A stretch of DNA of 61,451 nucleotides, counting the filler, from Squatina squatina (Eukaryota), in assembly GCA_031763465.1 (NCBI GenBank). It is 4 parts of 4 records of this genome, joined end to end, with 100 filler letters (N's around TTAATTAATTAA, not from the genome) between each part and the next. Parts side by side here need not be neighbours in the genome. Positions count along the whole stretch, not along the records: positions 1 to 14,115 come from JARFOE010000168.1; 3 more parts are not named here. One strand, 5' to 3'. This document shows positions 4,555 to 45,951 of this stretch, piece after piece. The position numbers and the translations under genes are program-made. The first letter of the stretch is position 1. Every line of letters begins with the position of its first letter. The notes below the pieces were generated by a model that made no database searches, was not told the origin of the DNA, and worked only from the letters and a program-made list of their open reading frames with translations.

Positions 4555-4630
4555 ATCATCTTATAAACCTCTATCAAGTCGCCCCTCATCCTTCTCCGCT
4601 CCAATGAGAAAAGGCCTAGCACTCTCAACC
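4555..4630 (-). mobile_element. CR1 LINE ORF2 C-terminal fragment
   Basis: Translates LGLFSLERRRMRGDLIEVYKM, a hallmark CR1 ORF2 motif. A plus-strand CR1 piece lies at 4366-4454. Confidence 0.85.
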
Positions 4631-5004
4631 AGCGAGAAGCCCAGTGTTAGAGGAGTGGAGGATCTGTATGGGGCGCGAAACAGGAGGGAATCAATAAGAA
4701 AAGGTGGGTCAAGACCTGAATACATTTGAAAGCAAGGATGAGTATTTTAAAATCAACTTGCAGAGGCACTTGGAGAGGCTGCAGATGAACGGAGTGTGGG
4801 TCAAAGTGCATTCGAGGACAGGGCTGAACACTTTTAAATGCGTTGGAGGTCGTAGAAGTTGAAACAGGGAGGTCAGCTGCGAGAGCCCTGGAAACGCCGA
4901 GTCAAGAGGTGATAAAAGAATGGACTGGGGTTTCAGCAGTGGAAGGGGGTTGGGTAAGGAGGTAAACTCCTTTCTTTTTTCAACACCTTCCAGCTTTTAC
5001 TCAC

Positions 5005-5136
5005 CATGTCTGGAAACCACGATATTGCTTTTCCATACTTCTGATGCCATGTAAACAACACCGGAATATCAACAATATCTTCTTCATCCAATCCTAATTC
5101 CTTCTTTAGAACATCTCGGTTCCAGTCAATGCATTG
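5005..5136 (-). CDS. PADI: Peptidyl-arginine deiminase, penultimate exon (copy A)
   Basis: [28 protein letters not shown]...FPDM matches PAD C-terminal motifs. 132 nt, with CAG acceptor and GTGAGT donor. Confidence 0.93.
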
Positions 5137-5235
5137 CTGAGAAAAAGAGAAAAGAGCAAAATAAAAAAATGAACAGTGATACAGAATTTCATACAAAGTG
5201 CGATTAAACTTAATCTTATTATCCCACTGACTCAC

Positions 5236-5312
5236 CTGCACATAAGCATTATCGTCGAGCAAGTTTTGATTGCTAAGGAGTTCATTAATTTTGAATGATT
5301 GCGTGTTTTGAG
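5236..5312 (-). CDS. PADI: Peptidyl-arginine deiminase, antepenultimate exon (copy A)
   Basis: [25 protein letters not shown], 77 nt, canonical AG/GT, splices in phase 0 to 5136. Paralogous to 12506-12582. Confidence 0.88.
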
Positions 5313-5570
5313 CTGATTGAAAAATACAAAGCAACATTAGTGTTCTTATTTATTTCGCTCATTGAATATCTCCTCAATAACCCAGTGAGGCTGATCAAAC
5401 ATGCAGTTCCACCCATTGGTACTCTGCCAACCACTCCCTACATTCTTCTAACCTTTACCAGTCCCCCTTATGGGTATCGGTACATTTTTAAAGAATATGT
5501 TTATTCTTTACACTGTTGTTCCCACCAAACCCTGTATTATTCTCCCTGGGTTCTGCACATTAAAGTCACA

Positions 5571-6188
5571 GGGGCCGAAATTCCCCTTGTTTGCTCCTCC
5601 GGTGGGAGGCACTAATGGACCGGCGATCGTGACATCATCTTCAGATGCTTCGCCCCGGTGGCACCTCTAACCTGAAATTCTCAGCGGACCCCCGCAGCAG
5701 CACTGGGCAATGGCACTGACTGCTGCAGGAGTCGCAAACACTGAGGCTGGTTGCTCGCGGGGCGCCATTTAAAGGTGAGGTGGGCGGCCGGCCAAAAGAA
5801 ACTGCCATTTTTTAATATCAATTGTGTCACGATCTAATTACTGTGATCGCCCAGCCCAGCACTCTGCTTGAATACCAGGCTGATTGCATGGCGCTCCCAT
5901 TCCCCGGTGCTGCAGCCGGTGAGTAAAAACACTGCAAAGCTTGCAGTGGGGAGCCCTTCCCTTTAATTGAGGGAGGAGTTCCTGCAATGCGTCAGTGCAA
6001 CTCCTGGCCACTGGTGGGACTTTTGCGCTCCAAGAGACAAGTGGAGCGCTGGATTTTGCATTCCATTTCCGTCTTGGAAAAAAATCTGGCAATTTCAGCA
6101 ATGATTTGAAAGTTAAACGCCTGGTGCTAACTTTCAAGACATTTTCAACTTAGCGCCCCAATCGGCCCTCTAGGGGAATTTCAGCCCC
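5571..6188. mobile_element. 618-bp non-autonomous DNA transposon (PIF/Harbinger-type MITE)
   Basis: Left end GGGGCCGAAATTCCCCT against right end (reverse complement) GGGGCTGAAATTCCCCT, 16/17 identical. Flanks ACA and ATA resemble a degenerate 3-bp TSD. Confidence 0.8.
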
Positions 6189-6904
6189 ATAGATTCCATA
6201 ACTACAGCTAAAGTGGAAGACAACTCTAAGGGTATTTACTAATACCTAGGAGCTAACATTGACTGTCGCCACGCTTGAAACTTTGCAGCACTGATTAGCG
6301 GTGAAACAGCACCCGGTGGTAATAGCGCCATAGAGCTCCAAAATTTGTCTGCGTTTGTCATCTGACCAGGCATGGCGCTGCTGGAGGTGCTGTTAGGGGC
6401 ACTCTCTTAACTGTCCAGAACACAATCAGGTGACCCATATCGTTAAGCAATTGCATTCCCACTGCCTTCATTCACNNNNNNNNNNNNNNNNNNNNNNNNN
6501 NNNNNNNNNNNNNNNNNNNNNNNNNNNNNNNNNNNNNNNNNNNNNNNNNNNNNNNNNNNNNNNNNNNNNNNNNNNGGACAACTGCAGAGGGCACCCTGTT
6601 CAGATCACGGTTAAAGGACACTGGAGTCCTATTGACATAACAGGACCCTGATTTGTATACATATATGGAGTTCTCACCTGATCTAGTTTGGTCCTTCAGC
6701 CACCACCAAAAACAGCAGCGTTAAAATCCTCATGGAACGCAAACAGAACTCTTTTTTAACTGCCTCTCGTTTCCCAGTTTCCACTGGGCGCTGTTGGAGG
6801 GGGAGTGAGGACGGGGGAAGTTAAAATCCCCCCCTCCCCCACCATTGTCCACATTATGAGCTTTCACTGAAATATTCAAATAATGTTCAATAATTTTGTC
6901 CTAC

Positions 6905-7644
6905 CTTTAAAGAATGCAAAAATCCTGCAGGTAGCCTCTGCAGTTGGTTGCTGTAGAGAAAGAGCTTTTGGAGTGGCGTGTGACTGAAAAGCTTAGTGGG
7001 TAACTCGTGGAGGCTGTTATTTGCTAGTGTTATCCAGGTCAGGTTTCGCAAACCAAAGAAGACCCCCTCAGGGAGGGACTCCAGTCTGTTGTTGTTGAGA
7101 GCACATATTCTGAGATTATGCAATGGTTTAAAAAGTGGCTCTGGAAGAACAGAGAGATGATTGTATGCTAGAGACAATACTTTCAATGCTTCCAAACCCA
7201 GGAAAGTACGTGGGGAAATCACTTGGAGATGGTTGTTGGACAAAATTAGCGTCTTGAGNNNNNNNNNNATTCTAGATTGGGAACGTTGTTGAAGATATTA
7301 TCTGGTAAGTGGGACAGCTGGTTGCTATACAGATACAGCCCCCTTAGCTGAGGAACCCAAGCAAATAAGTCATTTGGGAGCAAGATCAGCTTGTTCATCT
7401 GTAGGTGGAGCACTTTAAGATCTGGTGTATTCCGAAACGAATTGGTTTCTAATTGAATTGAATTATTTCTTAATTTCAGAATGTTGACGGCCTTGGGTAT
7501 ATCAAATGGAAGAAAGTGGAGTCCTGCGCTTGTACAGTCTACTGTTAGATTATCCTGCGAATGGCTACAGGTGCAGATACTTGGACAGGGGCAGAACCCG
7601 TCAGCAATCGACACAAGGGTGAAAATCATGTACTTCCACGACAT
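6905..7644 (-). CDS. First coding exon of an extracellular leucine-rich-repeat protein (signal peptide, LRRNT, at least 8 typical LRRs of about 24 aa; GP5/LRRC15/CPN2/VLR-like)
   Basis: Acceptor TTCTTTCTACAG upstream of 7660, Kozak GCCATG, CPCPSICTC...VDC cap, LxxLxLxxNxLxxLPxxxF repeats, donor AAG|GTAGGA at 6904. A 10-N gap at 7259-7268 explains the split into two ORFs. Confidence 0.88.
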
Positions 7645-8148
7645 GGCCCGCCTCTTTCTCCTGTAGAAAGAACAACNNNNNNNNNNNNNNNNNNNNNNNN
7701 NNNNNNNNNNNNNNNNNNNNNNNNNNNNNNNNNNNNNNNNNNNNNNNNNNNNNNNNNNNNNNNNNNNNNNNNNNNNATTTCAATCAATAGTTCATCCCTC
7801 ACAAAATGATGAAAGCTAGGTCATCAGTGTCTACGGAACACAAAGGAACTAGCAATACCAACAGTGGCATGCGACCTGTGCCATTATCATTATTTATTAC
7901 ACCTCTGTGAAGCATTTTAGGATGTTTCCCTATGTGAAAGCTGTCGTTTATTTGGCTTAAATGAGAATGAGGACATTTGCAAAGCGGCATCTGAGTTGAC
8001 ACCCACAGGAATGTCAGCAGCGGGCTTTATTTGGCTTAAAGCTTCAGTTTATTCTTAAAAGGAACTGAGTGAACACAGATTCTGAGATCAGACTGTAGGA
8101 CTGGAGGTGTGTGAATGGCACAGATTGCATGCTAATGTCCGCATATTG

Positions 8149-8430
8149 TTAGGTGCTAGTCTTGTCAGCAGGTTGCATGTTATCAAGGCTGTGCAGAAGC
8201 ATCTCCATATTCCACCACTTCAAAGCAAATGGCTTGCGACGAACCTTGGAGCCGCGGTGAACTTCACCCAGAATCATGTGATAGGCAGCAATGTCATCGA
8301 TGAAGTTACAATCCAGACCGAGTGGTTCCAGTGCTGAGCGCATCGCAGTTTCCAGTGGACATTTTCCATTTATCAGAGGTCCAAACGGCTTTGGAATACC
8401 CAGGTATTTCCCGAGGACTATCATGTTCAC
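8149..8430 (-). CDS. PADI: PADI terminal exon, variant copy with catalytic Cys->Arg and a 16-aa C-terminal extension (pseudoenzyme or pseudogene)
   Basis: [18 protein letters not shown]...[23 protein letters not shown] with TTTAG acceptor. Codon CGC at 8256-8254 replaces the TGC of the paralogue. Confidence 0.9.
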
Positions 8431-9728
8431 CTAAAGGGGCAAAGACAGAGTCCTTTTACTCAGTTCTTTTGAACAGTTGGAATGATAATAACAGAAAGAG
8501 GTACGAGGCAAAGAAGGTAACCAGGAAGAGAAAGACAGAGTGAGTGGAGATAAATGAGTAAAAGACAATGGATGGCGGGGAACAGAGGAGGTCGGGGCCC
8601 GAGGAGCAGGGGAGCNNNNNNNNNNNNNNNNNNNNNNNNNNNNNNNNNNNNNNNNNNNNNNNNNNNNNNNNNNNNNNNNNNNNNNNNNNNNNNNNNNNNN
8701 NNNNNNNNNNNNNNNAATACACCTTCGGTCACGTACGCACATTCCAATTTTGTCAACTCATCGCATAACATGTCTTGCTCCCAGTCACTTACAGGCTCTC
8801 CTTATCTTGTTGACGGGCCTTGCTGGTGCGTACCATGCCCCATAAAGACTCAACACCCATTCTCTGACCCTCAGGTTGGGTCTTTATCTTTCCCACAGAG
8901 TACATCTGTTAACCTTCACTTCCGCCCTAACTCACTGCTAGACATCAAAAGAGCAACTCACAGCTAGCATTTCTGTCTCTAAAGCTTTTCTGTCTTTAAA
9001 GCTTTTTCGTCTTTAAGCTATCGTTTGACCCATTCCTTTTCCAACTATAACCCAAAACTAATTGTTCCACCCTAACAGCGCCTTTAACCTAATGGAGGAG
9101 AGAGAAGCTTGGGGAGGCAGATAATGTTCTATTATGGGATAAATATGAATAAATCAGGAACACAAGACATAGTCAACACTTTGATCAAATCTTTATTGTT
9201 TGCAATAGCAGAGCCATTAACTCTTTGAAGCCTGCAGTTGTATATCTGAACCAAATATAATTAGTTTCAAATAGTTGCTCTCAGTTACAAGTTTATATAA
9301 AGCCTGCAAAGTTCTCCCAGAGGTTCTGCATGTCTTTTGCAGTCAGAGGAGGTGAAACTGAATATCGAACGCAGCGTATAACTCGCGCAGATGCGATACT
9401 GCCAGTTTTGCATCCCCACCAAAGTTATATTTCACCAGCTCTGTCTTCTGCAGTTTTGTGTATAGCAATGGAATGGTGCAGTAAAAGCGTAATAATCTAA
9501 CAGATTCCTTTTTGTCAACGGACAAAGCCACTGTGGCATCACTGGAGAGCAGTTTCACTGCTGGTCTGTTTTTTAACAGCTCAATGATATATTAACAACA
9601 AAGACTGATCTGGTGGAAACCACTTTGTGGCATGATCCAAGACTTTTACACTGTTCTTGAAATAGAAGCACTCTAGTTTGCAAAGGACAATATTAATGAG
9701 ACTTAAGTGAGTGCCTGGATTGCCTAGG

Positions 9729-10080
9729 TGTCAGCTGTGGCTCAGTAGGAGCATTCTTGACTCTAAGTCAGAAGATTGTGGGTTTAAGCCCCACTCCAAG
9801 ACATAATGAAAGCAAGTCATTACAGTGCAGTACTGTTAGAGATGTCGTCCTCTGGATGAGACGTTAAACTGAGGCCCTATCTATCTTCTCAGGTGGACGT
9901 AAAAGAGCTCATTAAAAGAAGAGCAGGGAATTTTTCCCAGTGTCCCTTAACTAACACTAAAGACAGGTGATCTGAGCATTTATTTCATTGTTATTTATGG
10001 GATCTTGCTGTGTACAAACTGGCTGCCATGTTTCCTACATTACATTGTGAAAGATGCTATAGAAATGTAAGTTCTTCCTT
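9729..10080 (+). mobile_element. DeuSINE copy, near full length
   Basis: A-box-like TGTGGCTCAGTAGG, B-box-like GGTTTAAGCC, Deu core, tail GATGCTATAGAAATGTAAGT. Confidence 0.75.
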
Positions 10081-11623
10081 TCGATGTCTAATTTCTCGGG
10101 ATTCAAGTAGAACTATTTCGAGTCACAGCTGGAACAAAGGGCCAATACATGAGCCTCAGGGTTTTAGCCATGCCTAGAACTTGTTTCATTAACAAAGAGG
10201 ATTTCAGTGCAGGAATGAACTTGTTATTGGAAGCACCCTGCACTTGGCACTCCTTCCAACAAAATCAGAAACTTGGCATAGAGAGCTATGAGTATAATCT
10301 CAAGTCCTACTGTGCCATTTTGCATTTTGTTTCCAAACCACTAGATTTATTGACCTATTAGAATTATATTTTTCGTTCCTCTGTTGGATCAATGTGTTTA
10401 TCTGGTGAGGGACATCCAAAATGTTCCAGGTTCAACCTCTGGGCTATGCTAAGTTAGCTGGTCTTAGCTCAGGCAACAGTATAGCATTTTGATTGGTCTC
10501 AGCATCCCTGGGGTATGGAGGAGAAAATCATGGTTCCCCAAGAATTGTGCTGCTGAACTCTATCCAATACCCCTTGGTAGAAAGTATAAGATGTCAGGTG
10601 AGAATAGGATTGAGCTTGGCTGTGATACATAGATATAAAACAAATGTTCAATTTCTCAAGTCAAAATTTTCAAGTCATAAAATGGGGAAACTAGGTTGCC
10701 ACTATCTCCTGCACTCAAAAAAAATGGCTTTATTGCAAGTGAGCACAATTTTCAAAGGGCATTGAGCTGAAATTCCTGCTCCACCACCAGAAATGCGGCA
10801 GGGTAGGGCAACTGGCCACCACTGAGCCCTGGCACTGACTCCATCCCAAATCCTGAGGACAGGTCATCTTCGTAGAGACAGTGGGTAGCTGGCATCTGTA
10901 GAGATACCCAATATGCATCGTGAGATCCGGGAAGAGCCAAAGCGATATGGTCACAGATATTTTTGGAATACTCTTGAGGGAGCATAGGTTCATCAACAGA
11001 AACGTAATGGTAGCTCTCTGAGACCAATAACCTTTGTTTTGGGCCATTTAGGGGCCTACCCAAAACCTAGTATAGGACCTATGCTGGCTCGCAGCTGGGA
11101 TATGTTCCCCTGGGCTTATCTGGAGACGATATATTGGGCAGAATTCCTGGGGTAGCATGGTGAAGTTCCAGATATGCCATCAAAGCTTGCTACAGTTCTG
11201 GAGGAGTGGGTTAAAGACTTGCCGACCACTCCTTCTTGCACCAATCAGAATTTCTGCTGCAAGTTGTGCCAAGGGAAAATCTGGATCTGGGCTCCACCAC
11301 CCAACTGAGGCCTTCTTTTCTACTCACCCCAGCCCCGAGAATTTTTGGCCGAATAGAAAGGTAAATTCCAGATAAGAACAATTAAGTTTTGGGGAGCAGA
11401 TTGATTTTTGTTTGTAAAATTTAACTAATTCCTAAGAGGGATTGACTGAGCACAGATATTAGGTTCCAACAATAGGACTCGTGTTGTTTGAATGGCGCAG
11501 ATTGCATGTCACTGTGTGGGTATTGTTGGGCGCTAGTCTTTTGTCAGCAGTTTGCATGTTACCAAGGCTGCACAAAGCAAAATTAAAATTAAAGCAATGT
11601 TTTGTGGAAATTGTAACTGGTAA

Positions 11624-11857
11624 TTACATCTCCATATTCCACCACTTCAAAGCAAATGGCTTGCGCCGAACATTGGAGCCGCAGTGAACTTCACCCTTCT
11701 TCACGTGATAGGTAGCAAAGTCATCGATGAAGTTACAATCTAGGCCGAGTGGTTCCAACGCTGAGCGCATCACAGTTTCCAGTGGACATTTTCCATTTAT
11801 CAGAGGTCCGAACGGCTTTGGAATACCCAGGTATTGGCCGAGGACTATCATGTTCAC
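11624..11857 (-). CDS. PADI: PADI terminal exon, intact copy B
   Basis: [18 protein letters not shown]...[23 protein letters not shown] keeps the catalytic Cys (equivalent to PAD4 C645) at 11683-11681. Confidence 0.96.
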
Positions 11858-12280
11858 CTAAAGCGGCAAAGACAGAGTCCTTTTACTCATTAGCACGGTC
11901 AGAATAATAAGAGAAAGAAGTATGTGGCAAGGAAAAGGGACACAGAGAAAGAAGGTAACCAGGAAGAGAAAAACACAGAGAGGTGTGAGATAAATGAGTG
12001 AAAGACAAAACCAGAGGACAAAAATTATAGGATGATGAGGAAAAGGATAAATGATCATAGAAAATGAACAAATGAAATTGAAGGAGAAGGAGAAGGCAGA
12101 TAAAACAAATACCCATTCTGCCAATTAGTTGACATATACAACAGGTTCCATATTATGTTTGTAATTTAATTAAGCAAAGCTCAATTCCTGTGGGGATGGG
12201 TTCTAATGACTGCTCTTGTACACCTCTGAGCAACTGGCAAGCTGGAATCAAGCCTCCCACCCTCACCAGTTTGCACTTAC

Positions 12281-12412
12281 CATATCTGGAAAGAATGCAT
12301 CTGCTGCGTGATATTTCTTGTCCAACTCAAACAACACAGGAATATCAATAATATCTTCTTCAATCAAACCCAATTCCCTCTTCAGGATATCTCGGTTCCA
12401 ATCAATGCATTG
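12281..12412 (-). CDS. PADI: PADI penultimate exon, copy B
   Basis: [28 protein letters not shown]...AFFPDM, 132 nt, CAG acceptor and GTAAGT donor, in phase with 11857. Confidence 0.95.
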
Positions 12413-12505
12413 CTGAGAGGAAGGCAGAGAGAATTTGAAATATTTATGCAATAATTTTCATACATGAACATAATTTTACTACATTATTATATCATATTGA
12501 CTCAC

Positions 12506-12582
12506 CTGTACGTAAGCATTTTCTTCAAGTAATTTTTGATTGCTTAGGATTTCATTAATTTTGACCGTTTTTGTACCTAAAG
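12506..12582 (-). CDS. PADI: PADI antepenultimate exon, copy B
   Basis: LGTKTVKINEILSNQKLLEENAYVQ, 77 nt, TAG acceptor and GTGAGT donor. Confidence 0.9.
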
Positions 12583-12929
12583 CTAGTTGAGAAACACAGA
12601 AGCAGTATTACTGTTTCTTATTCAACTGTCACCTTGAGTATCTCCTCATTAACCTTATATTGAGGCTTGTGAGACTGACAGTTCCACCCATTAATGATCT
12701 GTGTCCACCTCTCATTCCTGACTATGTACAATCCTCCTTGGAGACATCTGTGCATATTAATGGTACTTATAGATCTTTTGATAATTCTTTACAATTGCAC
12801 AAAGCACAGGAAAGAGAAACAAAGCTTAAGGTTTCACATCAAAGCTATTATAGCGGACAGCAATACCCGAGAAAGATGAATTCTTCATTCATTTAATCTC
12901 TACAAACAAAAACGAATAGCCATCATTAG

Positions 12930-13045
12930 ATTAGAGTGAGATGAGGAAGGATGGGAACAGGCTTGAGTGGAGCATAAACACCAGCATGGACTGGTTGGGC
13001 TGAATGGCCTGTTCCTCTGCTGTATATTCTATGTAATTCTATATA
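12930..13045 (+). mobile_element. CR1 LINE 3' tail
   Basis: GGACTGGTTGGGCTGAATGGCCTGTT..TGCTGTATATTCTATGTAATTCTAT, a typical CR1 terminus with ATTCTAT repeats. Confidence 0.7.
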
Positions 13046-14115
13046 ATCATTTCACACAGGGAAAAAGAATCACTTGGGGCAAGGTACCTTTCAGAAATTC
13101 ACACCCAGGATAGGTGATTCTACAACTCTGCTGACTAAGACTTAGATCTGTGATGTGTCTTTAGTTTCTCCTGTCAGCAGCAGAACATGGCAGAGAAACC
13201 CAATCAATACTGATCCGCATTCTGTTTGCGAGTAAGCAGTTCAGATACCTGACCTGCAGGAGGGAATTTTTTCTTTGGTTTATCAAGTTTATTTTATGAT
13301 TTTAAAGTTCTTGCACTGTTTCCAACAACACCATTTTTTCTTGCAGCCTATCTCAATCAGAATGGTTCAACCTAACCCTGCATTGCAGCATTTGGCAGTG
13401 ACCTTCCTATATACAGGAGCCAAGGGGGTTAACCAGGATACTGTCCTTTGCCGGCTTGTGCAGCTGGATTTCAGGCTATTTGCCAGACTTGCATATGAGG
13501 TGAATAAAGTATATTTTTGACTGAACAGCTTCTTTTGGACGAGGTCAAAGCAACATTAGAAAGCTTTGAAAATATAATCAGCAACATCTACTCTTCCATT
13601 GATGTCCCAAAAGGTATGGTTCGGTGAGCCCTCAACAGGTCTAAACATCCTCAACCAAAAGGAGGCACCTTTCAGAGGAGGAGTGTTTTCACTACGAGGA
13701 ATAAGTAGCACCTTCCTTCCACCCTGCCAATCCAGACAGCAGGATATCATAAAAATCTGCTCCTCCTGTCCTCCTATGTCCTCTTTTACCACTCCATGGT
13801 GTCTCCTCACTGACTGCAGGTGGACAATCCAGTAAAGGACGTGTCCACCTTTTCCACAGTAAGTCGGTGCAGTTTTTGTCATGTGTGTGAATGCCGAATC
13901 AGTGAAGGAAGTTGATGGTCCCCATTTTTGGAGTTATTTTTAAATTTGAGCAGTTATTTTCTTGAATCCAAGGATGGACAGACCAGGAAAGCCTCAGCCT
14001 TGATCAAGCATGATGGTGAATGTGTATAGAAACATAGCAACATAGAAAATAGGTGCAGGAGTAGGCCATTTGGCCCTTCGAGCCTGCACCGCCATTCAAC
14101 ACGATCATGGCTGAT

Positions 14116-14215
14116 NNNNNNNNNNNNNNNNNNNNNNNNNNNNNNNNNNNNNNNNNNNNTTAATTAATTAANNNNNNNNNNNNNNNNNNNNNNNNNNNNN
14201 NNNNNNNNNNNNNNN
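14116..14215. other. Artificial scaffold linker N44-TTAATTAATTAA-N44
   Basis: A palindromic 12-mer with stops in all six frames, centred in exactly 100 nt. Identical linkers occur at 31656 and 45852. Confidence 0.95.
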
Positions 14216-15672: not shown

Positions 15673-15939
15673 CATCTCTAATCCTCTCTAAGTTTGATTA
15701 TCAATTATCTGCCTCCTTTCTACCTTAAATTTCTTTATATCTTTCTTCATCTTTACTAATGTCTTGTCCACCTTGTTTGCCTCAGTATTTTCCAGAGAGA
15801 CTATTAGATTTACAGTTCTGTAAGTCATGGAAAAGAATCTCCTAATATTGACCATCATTTGTATAGTAGATCCATTCATGTTTCTGCAAAGGCTTGTAAA
15901 CATCTTAAATAATTGTACAATTTTTTTCTTATGGTTTAG

Positions 15940-16069
15940 GAAAAGCACAATAGTGAGGTTGATATTCCGTTTCTTTGAACCTCAGAAAGGGAGCATTTAT
16001 GTGGCTGGTCAGAATATTAAAGACATCAGTCTGGAAAGCTTGCGGAAAGCCATTGGTATTGTACCACAG
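15940..16069 (+). CDS. ABCB7: Mitochondrial ABC transporter ABCB7, NBD exon (end of Walker A to Q-loop)
   Basis: [43 protein letters not shown], 130 nt, with AG/GT boundaries. Confidence 0.95.
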
Positions 16070-17788
16070 GTAAAGATTATTTTTAATGTCCTGTTTCATC
16101 TGGTCTCAAAATGCACTAGGTGTGTGTAAATGTCTTTGTTTACGCAGCTGCCAAATGAAGCCTCAAAGCGAAGGAACATCTGAATCTATGTAGATTTGAT
16201 ATCCATAGTCTTTGGGGGGTGGGGAAGTGCAAACTGAAATGGTAATAACTCACAGAACAATTGTCATACTCAAAATGAGTAAATAGCATGAAATTCATTG
16301 CCTTAGGAAAATTGGCAGCCAAATTGTTAAATGCTTTGCCAAATCGTTTACTGTAATTAAAGTTGTTCATGAGTATCAGGTACACTGTTGACTCAGACTG
16401 GCTCCTGGATCAATGGAGATGCCAGAGTTAGTGAATGGTGTTTAATCCAAAAGATCAAGAGCATGACCTACTCTTCTCTCTGAGAATCAGTGAAACTGCT
16501 GAGTTTCTTGGTTCAACAGCTTTAATCTGGCTAAAAAATGTGGCAGCACCTTAACTTGTTCCAAACATCTAACGCCACATCTTTCCGTTCTTATTTGGTT
16601 CAAATTCCTTTAATCTACTGACAAGTCAACCAATGGTTCATTCATTTGAATGTGCATTTTATTTATTTCATTCATATATCTAACTTGATATTTCCGCTGC
16701 ATGTCCATCCTTTCCATATTAAGGGCGGCCAATTCAGGATTTTAAAGTTTCTAGCACTAAGCGCTGAATTTAGCACTGAAAATGGGACTCTTTGAAAATT
16801 TTCATTGAAATTCCCAATTAGCCACTTTAGATTTTGAGCGTTCAAACACATGTAAACTTTATTGTTAAGGGGCCCATAGTGAACTGACCTATTCGTGGTG
16901 TGGATGCAAATTCCACAGCTTGCTTTCAACCTGAATTCCAGAGTTTGCTTGCAACCTGACAGGCCACTTAAGNNNNNNNNNNNNNNNNNNNNNNNNNNNN
17001 NNNNNNNNNNNNNNNNNNNNNNNNNNNNNNNNNNNNNNNNNNNNNNNNNNNNNNNNNNNNNNNNNNNNNNNNCCCTCTGATCTCCTCGGTAGCAAGTCAT
17101 GGAATATGGCCTGTTTCTTCTCCTGGAACATTCCACATTTCTGCATGATGGCCTTGTCACTTTAAAACAATAGGAGATAGTGTTTGGTATGCCAAATTCT
17201 GCATTTGTTAATATTTTATTCACTTAATCCCTCCATGGACTCCCCCACCAACCACTGAAGAGAAACCTTTAGTTACTTGATTGCGATCAATAACTGCCTA
17301 CTTCTTACAGATGTAGTATCACTGGTCCATTGTTTTATAATTAGTGGAGAAGCACTCTGTTTCAAACTTTAGCTGCTATTTACACTATAAAGCCTACTAT
17401 GCCAAAAATGACAATTTTGCCAGTTATGTGATATAATGCTGTTTTTGTAAAACACTACACCCTCCTAAATCCTTTCCCACTCCAATCTCAGTGAGCAATA
17501 TCACAGGATCCCCTAATGTAGCATAAAACCACACTGTAACTGATACAAATGGTAAATTATTGTTTTGTAAAACCTTCAATAAGGTACAGTTTGTGGTTTA
17601 GCTTTCACATTTAAAATATGGCATTATATGAAATCAATGAGGAATATGACATTTCATAGTCCTCTAACTTTATTTTTTGTCTTTTTTTCTTTTGGCTTAA
17701 AGTGTAGTGTTTGGAAGAACTGAACCATTTTAAATGGACCTTTTGTCATTCATAGCCTGAGGTGAACATAAACTGGTGTTTCTTTCAG

Positions 17789-17892
17789 GAGGAGAAAAGC
17801 AGAGAGTTGCAATTGCTCGGACAATTCTGAAAAACCCTCACATTATCTTGTATGATGAAGCTACATCTTCTTTGGATTCCATTACTGAAGAG
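17789..17892 (+). CDS. ABCB7: ABCB7 exon (ABC signature and Walker B)
   Basis: [35 protein letters not shown], 104 nt, TTTCAG acceptor and GTATGT donor. Confidence 0.95.
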
Positions 17893-18562
17893 GTATGTTC
17901 TGGATGTTTCTGGTCAAATATCCCACACCAAAATATAACCACCTCTTATGGTCACTACTACACAATTATAAGACTTTTGTACTGCACACCATGTGAATCA
18001 GACATCTTTCTGTAAATCAAGGTAANNNNNNNNNNNNNNNNNNNNNNNNNNNNNNNNNNNNNNNNNNNNNNNNNNNNNNNNNNNNNNNNNNNNNNNNNNN
18101 NNNNNNNNNNNNNNNNNNNNNNNNNNNNNNNNNNNNNNNNNNNNNNNNNNNNNNNNNNNNNNNNNNNNNNNNNNNNNNNNNNNNNNNNNNNNNNNNNNNN
18201 NNNNNNNNNNNNNNNNNNNNNNNNNNNNNNNNNNNNNNNNNNNNNNNNNNNNNNNNNNNNNNNNNNNNNNNNNNNNNNNNNNNNNNNNNNNNNNNNNNNN
18301 NNNNNNNNNNNNNNNNNNNNNNNNNNNNNNNNNNNNNNNNNNNNNNNNNNNNNNNNNNNNNNNNNNNNNNNNNNNNNNNNNNNNNNNNNNNNNNNNNNNN
18401 NNNNNNNNNNNNNNNNNNNNNNNNNNNNNNNNNNNNNNNNNNNNNNNNNNNNNNNNNNNNNNNNNNNNNNNNNNNNNNNNNNNNNNNNNNNNNNNNNNNN
18501 NNNNNNNNNNNNNNNNNNNNNNNNNNNNNNNNNNNNNNNNNNNNNNNNNNNNNNNNNNNNNN

Positions 18563-24712: not shown

Positions 24713-24990
24713 TCAGTTTTGGATGACCTCATGTTTACGGTGGGTAGAACGTGAGAGGTCGGCCTCATTGTGGAGGAGTGCATTGGAATAGCGTGAAACA
24801 AGAGCCAGGAACAAGACTGTAGCTGGGCCTGAAGAACCAGTAGAACCAGTTTGCCAGTAACAGATTCAGCAGGTAACAGCGGCGGTGGGGGAAGGGCTGT
24901 AAGCTGATCAGTTACTTTAAAATTTAAGCAACTGAGCAGCAGATCAGAAACATTGCAACTGAGTCTTACGGTGAGTCCGTTGCAGAAGCG

Positions 24991-25060
24991 CAGGGTGACC
25001 AGGCGTCCCGCTTTTTCCGGGACAGTCCCCGTTTTTCAGGAAACGTCCCGTGTTCCGACA
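24991..25060. mobile_element. Terminus of a hAT (Blackjack-like) non-autonomous DNA transposon
   Basis: CAGGGTGACCAGGCGTCCCG...CCGGGACAGTCCC resembles the AGGGTGACC..GTCCCG..GGGACAGTCC termini of hAT-Blackjack elements. The other end is not visible because of a gap. Confidence 0.6.
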
Positions 25061-25061
25061 C

Positions 25062-25695
25062 TGTGCAGTCCCGACGGAGACCCGGCCGTGGGTGCCCAGT
25101 CCAGACTGAGACCCGGCCGCACGTGCAGTCCCGACGGAGCCCTGGCAGCGCGTGTGCAGTCCCGACGGAGAACCGGCAGCGCTTGCGCAGTCCCGACGGA
25201 GAACCGGCAGCGCGTGCGCAGTCCCAACGGAGCCCGAGCAGCGCGTGCAGTCCCGACGGAGCCCTGGCAGCGTGTGCAGTCCCGACGGAGCCCTGGCAGC
25301 GCGTGCAGTCCCGACGGAGCCCTGGCAGCGCGTGTGCAGTCCCGATGGAGAACCGGCCGCACGTGCGCAGACCTGACGGAGAACCGGCCGCACGTGCGCA
25401 GTCCCAACGGAGACCCGGCCACGTGTGCGCAGTCCCGACAGAGACCCGGCCGCGCCTGCGCAGTCCCGACGGAGACCCGGCCCCGTGTGCGCAGTCCTGA
25501 CGGAGACCCGGCCGCGCGTGCGCAGTCCTGACGGAGACCCGGCCACGTGTGCGCAGTCCGGACGGAGACCCGGCCACGTGTGCGCAGTCCTGACGGAGAC
25601 CCGGCCACGTGTGCGCAGTCCTGACGGAGACCCGGCCGCGCGTGCACAGTCCCGACGGAGACCCGGCCACGTGTGCGCAGTCCTGACGGAGACCC
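25062..25695. repeat. GC/CpG-rich minisatellite, about 21 units of 27-31 bp (consensus GTGCGCAGTCC(C/T)GACGGAGACCCGGCC(G/A)C)
   Basis: Directly visible tandem array that runs into an assembly gap. It produces the many overlapping spurious ORFs in this region. Confidence 0.95.
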
Positions 25696-27826
25696 NNNNN
25701 NNNNNNNNNNNNNNNNNNNNNNNNNNNNNNNNNNNNNNNNNNNNNNNNNNNNNNNNNNNNNNNNNNNNNNNNNNNNNNNNNNNNNNNNNNNNNNNCTAGC
25801 CAATCTTTCAAAAGCAATTTCATTAGAGCAAGACAAGGCATGGTGGTCCCCAAAGAACTTGAGGCTTGACTCCTTTAAATCTTGTTTTATATTGAAAGCT
25901 GTGAAATTTCCAGAACCACCTGTTTATTGTGTTCGAAATAGCTGTATCAACCCTGTGCAAAAAAACCCCACAATTGTTCTGTAGTTGCTTCTGTGAAATA
26001 TTGTAATGAACTATTTTACTTTTTGTAAACATGCTTCATTTATTTTTTCTATCTATGTACAGCATGTAATTAGTAAAAGGTTTTGTTTTTTTACCGTGAG
26101 TTTTGGGAACAAACAACCTGTGTTTTTACATATAGATTCCTGCAGCAAGGATATTCCGTACATAACATACAGTTAGCCAGGGTATTGTCCAAGGGTGCCA
26201 GGAGCACTCCAATACCCTACCTCAATGGTCATTTTTCACGTTAGCCTGGATGGTAAATGTTGGCAGGCTATTAATCCATGGAACTGAACACAAACTGGGG
26301 ATCAAATCAGGGAGCTTCCTTACCTGTATGGCTTATTATTGCAACAGGTAGTGCCATTGGAGGAGCCTGTGGCTTCTTTTCTAATTTTTCTGCTTACCTT
26401 TTATGCCGTGCTCCATTCTCTACGTAAGAGGATGGTTGGACAACCTGGTTCTATTCCTTTGCCAATGTAACCATCCATTAGCTGTGCACAAGAATGGCCA
26501 ATGGTAGCTAATCCTCTTTATTCCAACAATCTCCTCCTCTTGTTAACGTGACAGGACAAAATGTCACATTTTGTGTCTCCTGAGTTGATGCAACTCTGAT
26601 CAGAAAGTGACCAAAGAAAAAAGCTAAAAATTAATGCCTCAACAGCTGTAGCATCTGCAGTATAGGCTTGCACATGGAGTTAGGGAAACCCAGGAGCAAC
26701 ATCAACAAGGTTTAGTAGGTGTACCGGGAGTGAAGGTTAGCCATAAGCTCCCCAGTATAGTCATATCAGTTCCTTCGTCTTCAGCTCTCATTGCATCCAT
26801 CAAGTGTGCCAAGCTGCAATTCCTTGTTCTGTATCACTTTCTCTTGCTGTTTTTCTTTAGTGTAGATTACAACTATTAACAACAAATTGGTCCAGTTGTT
26901 CTAAATAATGTGTCGTACAACAAAGTGTGTTCTCATTTAAGGTACCGCGTGACTGTCCATCAATGAAAATGTGTTATGCAATAGAATGGGTAAATACTGC
27001 TGGCTTTGTTGCAGTTGCACATCAAGACCTGGTGGAATAAACAAATTGGTGAGTGTTACATTGCAGCTTTACAGGGAGGGAAAGTGTCTGCAGCTGCAGG
27101 CAGCAAATCAGGGTGATGTCAAACTGTGGAAGAGCAAAGGGATTTAGGTGTCTCATATATGTGGGTTGAACAAATGAAGGACAGAGACGCGATGAGCTGC
27201 TAGTCCATGTGGTGGCTTTATTAGGCCAGCGTGAACTGAGCATGCTCATACCAAACCATGTGATAATACATTGCAAAATTCATAAAATGGGAACATAAGA
27301 ACCAAATGAGGGGATTGACACAACAATTTCAACTGTGCAAGCTGAGTGACTGTATGGAATCATAATCCATCAAATATGTCCAAAGGCAAGGGAATGACCA
27401 GATAGTGTTTAAGAGCACATACTAGACCCCATTTCATTAATAAAGGTGCAGAAAGTAACGACCTTTTTCCACCTTTGCTATGAGACAGCCAGTTTGGGAA
27501 GACAATCAACAAAGGAGATGAGGGCTCTGCCCTGAGTAGTTATGACAATAGCTGAATCAGAGCTAATCACTGTGATGTGTACAGGATCCAGAATTACTCA
27601 CACCTTATCTAAACCTGAGGTAGATTACATAGACTACCATAGATATCATAGAGTCATTACGGCACAGAAGGAGGCCATTCGGCCCATCGAGTCTATGCCG
27701 GCTTTCTTTAGAGCAATCCAGACGGTNNNNNNNNNNNNNNNNNNNNNNNNNNNNNNNNNNNNNNNNNNNNNNNNNNNNNNNNNNNNNNNNNNNNNNNNNN
27801 NNNNNNNNNNNNNNNNNNNNNNNNNN

Positions 27827-31655: not shown

Positions 31656-31755
31656 NNNNNNNNNNNNNNNNNNNNNNNNNNNNNNNNNNNNNNNNNNNNT
31701 TAATTAATTAANNNNNNNNNNNNNNNNNNNNNNNNNNNNNNNNNNNNNNNNNNNN
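31656..31755. other. Artificial scaffold linker N44-TTAATTAATTAA-N44
   Basis: Same structure as the linker at 14116. Confidence 0.95.
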
Positions 31756-42711: not shown

Positions 42712-42860
42712 AATGACAACAGAGAGATGTTCAGCCGAGTTAGGAACATGATGTATGATCTTATTGAGTGGCGATCACAGATACTTTCTGGAACACTCCC
42801 GCAAGACGAGCTGAAGGAACTGAAACAGAAAGTCACTGCCAAAATAGATTATGGCAACAG
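42712..42860 (+). CDS. DOCK1: DOCK1 exon (N-terminal helical region)
   Basis: [50 protein letters not shown], 149 nt, with AG/GT boundaries. Confidence 0.95.
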
Positions 42861-44104
42861 GTCTGCATAATATAATAGATCTGGATAAACTGACATAGCT
42901 TAATATGAAGAAAAATAGGTTCTTTTAGTTTAAGTGTTGGTATTGCTAATCATTAATGTGTAACTTAAACACTTATTATTTGTCTATTTATTTTAAACGG
43001 ATTCCTTATTCTGCTGGTCATCTCTTTTTATGTGGGGGCAGTGTATGTGCATTTATGCCCATTTGCAGCTTTATACAGTTTTCCAGTCATTTTACGATAG
43101 TTTTAGAAGTGGTAAGTTTACTATTATGTTGGTTATCCCAATTGACCGAAGACTGAATATAGGAAGCTAGATTATGGGATTAATTCCATAATTAAGAATT
43201 AACTGGAAAAAGTAACTGAAGAATCAAGATGGGTGCTTTTGTTCTTGGTTCTATCCTTTTCCACCTCTTCAATCTCTACTTCTGTGTCTACCAAACCTTC
43301 TTAGGCATTTGTTTTTGTTCACACTATCCCTCAGAGGAGTAATTCCTCTTGCCCTTCAAGCTATCATTCTCTTACTTCTAAAGCCAGGAGTGTTGATGTC
43401 GACATTTAAATTACCCATTGTCTATCATTTGGAAAGTTCTGACCTAATCATTGATCACCATTTGATTTTACAGTCTGGGTGATAAGGTATAAGATTCTGA
43501 GTGAAGTTCTTACTAATACATTACTGAAGTTAGACTTTATTAATGCTATGATTAAGTGAGAGGTAATACACATATTTCAGTTTCAAACTATATGTAAATT
43601 TGTACATTAGTTACATTTTCCGTCTTTTGTAATGAATGTATTGAAACCAAGTTCTCAATATACTTGCCATAAACATCAAGTTGTTTTCTTCATATCCTCG
43701 GTCAACACAATGATCTTCTCTTCTAAAATGCATATGCAAATTTCTTTTCATTTTTAAAATGCTCATGTCCAAGTCTTCTGTGAGGAAATGGCTAAAGAAT
43801 CCCGATCCAGGATGAGCATTAATAAATATCATTAACTCTGGGGTCCTGTGGAGCAGTTGTTGTTAGAAATATCAGGGCAATTTCTTTAACTGGTTAACGG
43901 GAGGGCTGTAGGATTGAGTTGGCAGATGGTGCCTTCTGGTAACTTTAAATGCAGCAGAAAAGAGGTTTTGTTGGGTTTGTCAACCAAATATTCAAACGGA
44001 GAATTTACCTACTTGTCAATAGGAGCATGATAGGCGAAGGAAACCTCAAACTGAACACAATGAAATGAGTGATTACTTCACACTTGGGTTAAAGGGATAA
44101 AGAA

Positions 44105-45851: not shown

Positions 45852-45951
45852 NNNNNNNNNNNNNNNNNNNNNNNNNNNNNNNNNNNNNNNNNNNNTTAAT
45901 TAATTAANNNNNNNNNNNNNNNNNNNNNNNNNNNNNNNNNNNNNNNNNNNN
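45852..45951. other. Artificial scaffold linker N44-TTAATTAATTAA-N44
   Basis: Same structure as the linkers at 14116 and 31656. Confidence 0.95.

Follow-up and report, generated by a model that had tools for sequence, protein, structure and literature searches.

A PADI copy in the genome of Squatina squatina (assembly GCA_031763465.1) carries arginine where the catalytic cysteine should stand. Our preferred reading, to which we give a probability of about 0.55, is that it is a lineage-specific, catalytically dead and probably decaying copy of type A, one of two shark PADI paralogue types. The change lies in the last coding exon of this copy (8149..8430, minus strand of the window, the window being the whole stretch of 61,451 nucleotides that was analysed). 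This exon, referred to below as the dead-site exon, consists of 77 PAD codons followed by a 16-codon read-through that ends at a TAA stop (8151-8149). If a protein is made from it, that protein is predicted not to citrullinate by the known mechanism.

Active site and C-terminus of the dead-site exon

The dead-site exon corresponds to positions 322-395 of the 395 in Pfam PF03068 (E 4.4e-33), that is, to PAD catalytic-domain sequence. Among protein matches, the best 17 all belong to PADIs of sharks or rays. Read on the minus strand from 8430 to 8149, it encodes GEVHRGSK, whereas the last exon of the other copy in the window (11857-11624) encodes GEVHCGSN. Codon 59 is CGC (Arg; 8256-8254 in the assembly sequence) where the other copy has TGC (11683-11681), and codon 62 is AAG (Lys; 8247-8245) where it has AAT for the conserved Asn. 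In alignments with the solved PAD1, PAD3 and PAD4 chains, the arginine falls on the nucleophile column, which in PAD4 is that of C645 (PMC13113611). A further codon, ATT at 8290..8292 (minus strand), places Ile where Phe is invariant in 27/27 chondrichthyan PADIs. The flank as a whole reads IAAYHMIL in the dead-site copy and FATYHVKK in the other, with five residues differing.

Over their full shared length, the two last exons differ at 18/231 nucleotides (7 synonymous, 11 non-synonymous) and at 9/77 residues. The codon and flank differences given in the sequence-only reading, as well as its statement that the remainder of the exon is almost identical, are borne out by the sequence of both exons. 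The same is true of the open frame and the retained acceptor, TTTAG/GT being intact at 8435-8431. No frameshift, premature stop or splice lesion was found in the exons seen, which make up ~22% of the full gene with the type-A exons included.

A feature absent from that reading affects the C-terminus. Directly after NMEM, a 48-49-bp deletion (junction at 8199..8200, minus strand, with 2-bp TG microhomology) takes out the conserved TAA stop codon and lengthens the frame by 16 codons, up to the stop at 8151-8149. Of the marks of an active PAD, the nucleophilic Cys is replaced by Arg, and the conserved C-terminus, which lies 18 residues past the Cys column in 129/130 homologues and 19 in one, lies 34 residues past it in the dead-site copy. 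The earlier prediction of an enzymatically dead protein stands, in that any product ending in this exon would be without the nucleophile. Transcripts whose stop codon lies in the last exon escape nonsense-mediated decay. Because the stop of the dead-site frame lies in the last exon, its product would escape this decay too, and two AATAAA hexamers, candidate polyadenylation signals judged by their sequence, follow it (starting at 8053 and 8031; 8026..8053, minus strand), which makes expression of the copy possible.

The cysteine and arginine codons are a single T/C base apart, and CGC is taken from the assembly sequence, so an assembly or base-call error at position 8256 has to be considered. 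We regard such an error as very improbable. It would account neither for N>K and F>I, which are independent of it, nor for the deletion; the exon differs from the other copy at 7 synonymous sites as well, and its 3' flank is matched by one small public sequencing run (0.08 of words), listed in a search whose matches included no RNA run. In that run, one contig covers 7881-8131, which is the 3' flank only, and matches it at 245/251 bases with 6 differences; because of this match the locus can be taken as real. The step from CGC to UGC is also a single C-to-U change, by which RNA editing could restore the cysteine codon in the transcript. To this we attach next to no weight: N>K, F>I and the stop loss would remain, and C-to-U recoding of this sort is rare in vertebrates.

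Two shark PADI paralogues and the assignment of the exon

The window is composed of 40 pieces with a median length of 1230 bp, mostly joined by 100-N gaps. A profile of 27 shark and ray PADIs, run against the window, found only the last three exons of PADI, and these twice; no upstream exons were found there, those with the D350/H471/D473 equivalents and the Ca-binding residues included. All three last exons of one PADI gene lie on the contig 8716-14115 (12582-12506, 12412-12281 and 11857-11624; 11624..12582, minus strand), with GEVHCGSN and a normal stop. Two intact preceding exons of a second PADI gene, with canonical splice sites, lie on the contig 4555-6475 (~5313-5236 and ~5136-5003; 5003..5313, minus strand) and are the likely partner of the dead-site exon. 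The latter lies by itself on an 839-bp contig (7777..8615) with a 100-N gap on each side, and 77 of ~655 codons are all that can be attributed to the dead-site copy. The 99-bp intron between the two preceding exons (5137-5235) is in frame and contains no stop; its retention would keep the frame.

On the minus strand, the dead-site exon lies upstream of the exons at 5313-5003 that should precede it, so that the contigs are either misordered or from different copies. No overlap of at least 13 bases was found between the contig ends of the 40 pieces. The same stretch also holds pieces of unrelated genes. A leucine-rich-repeat gene with an LRRNT cap lies between the PADI contigs (6887-7650, minus strand, with a 10-N gap inside), ABCB7 exons lie at ~15914-16100 and 17776-17898 (plus strand, the second recognised by eye), and a DOCK2-like exon lies at 42727-42861 (plus strand). 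Such a mixture points to unrelated contigs having been joined, so order across the gaps is no proof of adjacency, and we rejected a tandem PADI layout inferred from it. The earlier description of the copy as standing beside an active one is unsupported for the same reason, since it relied on a 100-N join. The spacers at 14116-14215, 31656-31755 and 45852-45951 each consist of 12 bases between two blocks of 44 N and represent a joint, not biology; the first of them reads as a stops-in-all-frames linker. At ~24950-25800 lies a GC-rich array of tandem repeats that contains several long open frames and is broken by a gap.

The exons were placed with a tree built from 26 chondrichthyan proteins plus 4 outgroups. 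The sample for the tree and for column counts contained one protein per gene, with isoforms and duplicate predictions left out; a truncated skate protein was kept out of the tree and is among the 27 chondrichthyan proteins of the column counts. Clade A comprises 8 rows (100/99) and clade B comprises 18 (99/97). By this tree, sharks have two old PADI paralogue clades, here called types A and B. The carpet-shark and batoid proteins retrieved belong to clade B only, with no type-A protein among them. Published accounts give fish a single PADI (PMC8826395), shark included (PMC13701976). Among the papers found, none deals with two shark PADI paralogues or with a C>R PAD, although the lists of sequences in PMC8826395 may be relevant here. 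The contrast between two shark clades and the single PADI of the literature is a side result that may matter more than the dead-site copy itself.

The exons at 5313-5003 group with clade A in the tree (96/98), and the exons at 12582-12281 are closest to type B, their top three identities all being to type B (75%). For codons 48-54, the mean BLOSUM score of the dead-site exon is 25.8 to type A and 18.7 to type B, as compared with 17.0 and 22.5 for the other copy. Over the whole dead-site exon the scores are 366.9 and 360.6. The dead-site exon thus leans toward type A, an assignment for which a handful of residues in a variable loop are decisive. In the same cluster of contigs, the type-A exons at 5313-5003 have a phase-0 donor that is compatible with the dead-site exon, and we infer that the dead-site exon belongs with them. 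In Heterodontus, Carcharodon and Cetorhinus, annotated isoforms of type A end in a different tail instead of the Cys-bearing last exon, and the tails of the two lamniforms (Carcharodon and Cetorhinus) hardly differ. For these alternative type-A last exons, the window holds no credible match (best E 0.12).

The isolation of the dead-site exon on its short contig, the lack of an end overlap, its low dS to the type-B exon and the clean appearance of the type-A exons would also suit an orphan last exon, produced by partial segmental duplication, with the true type-A gene and its Cys-bearing last exon elsewhere in the assembly. Extra shark PADI copies do occur, S. canicula having two type-B proteins. 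We hold this origin to be unlikely, though it keeps some weight: the window contains last exons and sets of preceding exons in equal number, two of each, and low last-exon divergence is common between shark paralogues (3-10/77 residues). In an assembly as fragmented as this one, a short isolated contig might instead represent an alternate haplotype, in which case the exon would be a null allele of the sequenced animal and a working allele would exist in the species. This is improbable, as three invariant-column substitutions and a deletion are many for one segregating haplotype.

Probable decay of a type-A copy and the case for a retained dead protein

The loss of the cysteine appears to be lineage-specific, because the type-A proteins (8/8, from 8 species) all keep the Cys, the Asn and the D/H/D motifs. 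Cys occupies the nucleophile column in 120/120 among the matches listed (of 183 homologues) and in 27/27 chondrichthyan proteins, in which the D/H/D motifs are kept too. Over 404 proteins, many of them redundant, the column holds C in 385, A in 5, Y in 2, and W, S and R in 1 each, with a gap in 3 and no hit in 6; the sole Arg belongs to a metagenomic protein that is 37% identical. The search for the same C>R copy in related species, proposed earlier, came back empty for sharks and other vertebrates, with 0/8 type-A and 0/27 chondrichthyan proteins, a sample in which squalomorphs are thinly represented (two named species) and which a small clade could escape. Bird PADI2 proteins read GEVRCG, with Arg for the His just before a retained Cys. 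In a PADI prediction from the raccoon dog, the nucleophile column holds Trp and D/H/D is intact; it is a single record and possibly an error or a null allele.

The earlier claim that substitutions are concentrated at the active site held in part. F>I, C>R and N>K do fall on invariant columns, of which the dead-site exon alters 3/39 and the other copy 0/39. These three changes set the dead-site copy apart, as do the loss of the stop and, within the variable loop, one residue not seen elsewhere. The non-synonymous excess in codons 47-64 (Fisher p 0.013), however, weakens to p 0.22 once the variable codons are removed. The hypervariable codons 49 and 52-54 differ between shark paralogues that keep the Cys, too, and 4/5 of the differing flank residues fall in this loop. 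Of the differences between paralogues, those within codons 47-54 make up 5/7 in Carcharodon, 4/6 in Cetorhinus, 0/3 in Heptranchias and 1/6 in Pristiophorus. Since the loop varies in Cys-bearing paralogues, we rejected the flank difference as a sign of decay or adaptation of the dead-site copy.

For the three invariant-column changes, which lie within 16 codons, clustering under random hits has a p of about 0.10; with the Cys included the p is 0.009, a post hoc value since the finding was chosen for its Cys. By this comparison of sequences, the damage would be partly focused on the active site. N>K need not be a lesion by itself: Lys is found with the Cys kept in 2 distant PADs, and this, together with the Cys-bearing Heterodontus B, for which a leave-one-out count likewise gives 3 changed columns among those otherwise invariant, speaks against reading each such change as a lesion. 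In the literature found, the conserved Asn appears among docking contacts only.

The near-identity of the two last exons extends beyond the protein. Their dS is 0.15, far below the 0.91 of the two preceding exons. Their pairwise dN is 0.064, with both branches mixed in these values; codons 1-46 give a dN of 0.019 and a dS of 0.21, confounded by conversion. In the 3' end of the intron (8431..8580, minus strand), 32 of the last 35 bases and 87/104 aligned bases upstream match the other copy, and the 3' flanks of the two exons match at ~80%. Because synonymous and intronic bases are also alike, the near-identity does not come from selection on the protein, which weakens the earlier case for a pseudo-enzyme. 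It points to gene conversion between tandem paralogues or to a younger duplication. Conversion fits because the Heptranchias and Pristiophorus paralogue pairs have species-specific residues in common in the last exon.

We propose that type A would have become redundant in this lineage, its loss being covered by the Cys-bearing type-B gene. One early hit, either the TGC>CGC transition or the deletion, would have removed activity. The remaining changes, together with the stop-loss deletion, could then have accumulated freely, and periodic conversion with the type-B copy would have kept parts of the exon alike. We infer the order of the lesions and the absence of function in the dead-site copy from this pattern. 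In favour of decay, the changes at 3/39 invariant columns and the lost C-terminus are several independent departures in one 77-codon exon, and type A looks dispensable, given that the carpet-shark and batoid proteins retrieved are all of clade B. Against it stand the intact frames and splice sites of the exons seen and the grouping of the three invariant-column changes, the Cys included, within 16 codons. Mildly against it are the type-A exons, in which 0/22 invariant columns are changed where ~1.7 would be expected at the rate of the last exon, by our own estimate. A young pseudogene had been named earlier as the alternative, and with the deletion of the stop taken into account it is the better fit. 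As a decaying duplicate, the copy would be one more loss of a dispensable paralogue, with little weight beyond annotation.

Several of these observations would also suit an expressed pseudo-deiminase, in which type A keeps its fold without the nucleophile and acts as a scaffold, a substrate decoy or a dimer partner of type B, a non-catalytic role of the kind proposed for PADI6. Frame, acceptor and candidate polyadenylation signals are intact, the type-A exons are unchanged at 22/22 invariant columns, and the changes at invariant columns in the last exon are all confined to codons 47-62. In addition, the type-A isoforms of Heterodontus, Carcharodon and Cetorhinus exchange the last exon for another tail, and PADIs without the Cys are known from PADI6 (PMC11402830) and from a marsupial set without the four catalytic residues. 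Nevertheless, we consider a pseudo-deiminase unlikely, as no second species with C>R exists among the 8 type-A proteins, the stop codon has been deleted, conversion accounts for the near-identity, and the clustering has a p of 0.22 without the variable loop. At similarly low odds, the Arg, placed beside the Asp pair that binds the substrate arginine, could plug the pocket, so that the protein would serve as a scaffold in the manner of PADI6 or, as a dimer partner, would damp type B. If true, cartilaginous fish would have gained a dead PAD recently and independently. Were the copy an expressed pseudo-enzyme, it would be a recent, independent counterpart of PADI6. Active orthologues in 8 other sharks would then open the change from enzyme to scaffold to direct testing.

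Comparison with known dead and active PADIs

Shark type-A PADI2-like proteins (for example Carcharodon XP_041062981.1, Heptranchias XP_067826663.1 and Pristiophorus UPI00398F79DA) show 82-87% identity over the exon and the same motif frame, and the exons at 5313-5003 fall with the type-A clade in the tree. In all type-A proteins (8/8), Cys, Asn and Phe are kept and the chain stops 18-19 residues past the Cys, whereas the dead-site copy has Arg, Lys and Ile and ends 34 residues past that column.

Mammalian PADI6, like the dead-site copy, combines the PAD fold with a residue other than Cys at the nucleophile position. In PADI6 that residue is Ala, with a Cys on either side, and the protein does not act on standard substrates in vitro (PMC11402830). 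PADI6 is conserved over ~80 species, vital for early embryos and dimerises, with its Ca sites lost and its cleft blocked (PMC11402830); active PADIs are head-to-tail homodimers (PMC9174705). The dead-site copy differs in that it has Arg, is known from the sequence of one assembly and is no PADI6 orthologue. It has the loss of the catalytic residue in common with proteins of the PADI6 kind and lacks their sharing across species. By analogy, it would be PADI6-like only if expressed and selected.

The marsupial 'PADI4-like' proteins XP_044524630.1, XP_051844368.1 and XP_031818614.1 come from Gracilinanus and Antechinus, plus Sarcophilus in the same cluster as Antechinus. The two that were aligned have Tyr at the nucleophile column, and all four catalytic positions are changed in them (D>G/K, H>N, D>K, C>Y). 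With the tetrad lost and relatives in three species, this set has the pattern expected of a conserved pseudo-enzyme, a pattern that the dead-site copy does not have, and on the basis of these alignments it is a candidate conserved pseudo-deiminase.

The remaining comparison is with a young unprocessed pseudogene in a converting tandem family. The dead-site copy departs from this model in showing no premature stop or frameshift in the exons seen. It otherwise resembles it, likewise with a kept intron, lesions at conserved sites, an intact paralogue and converted flanks.
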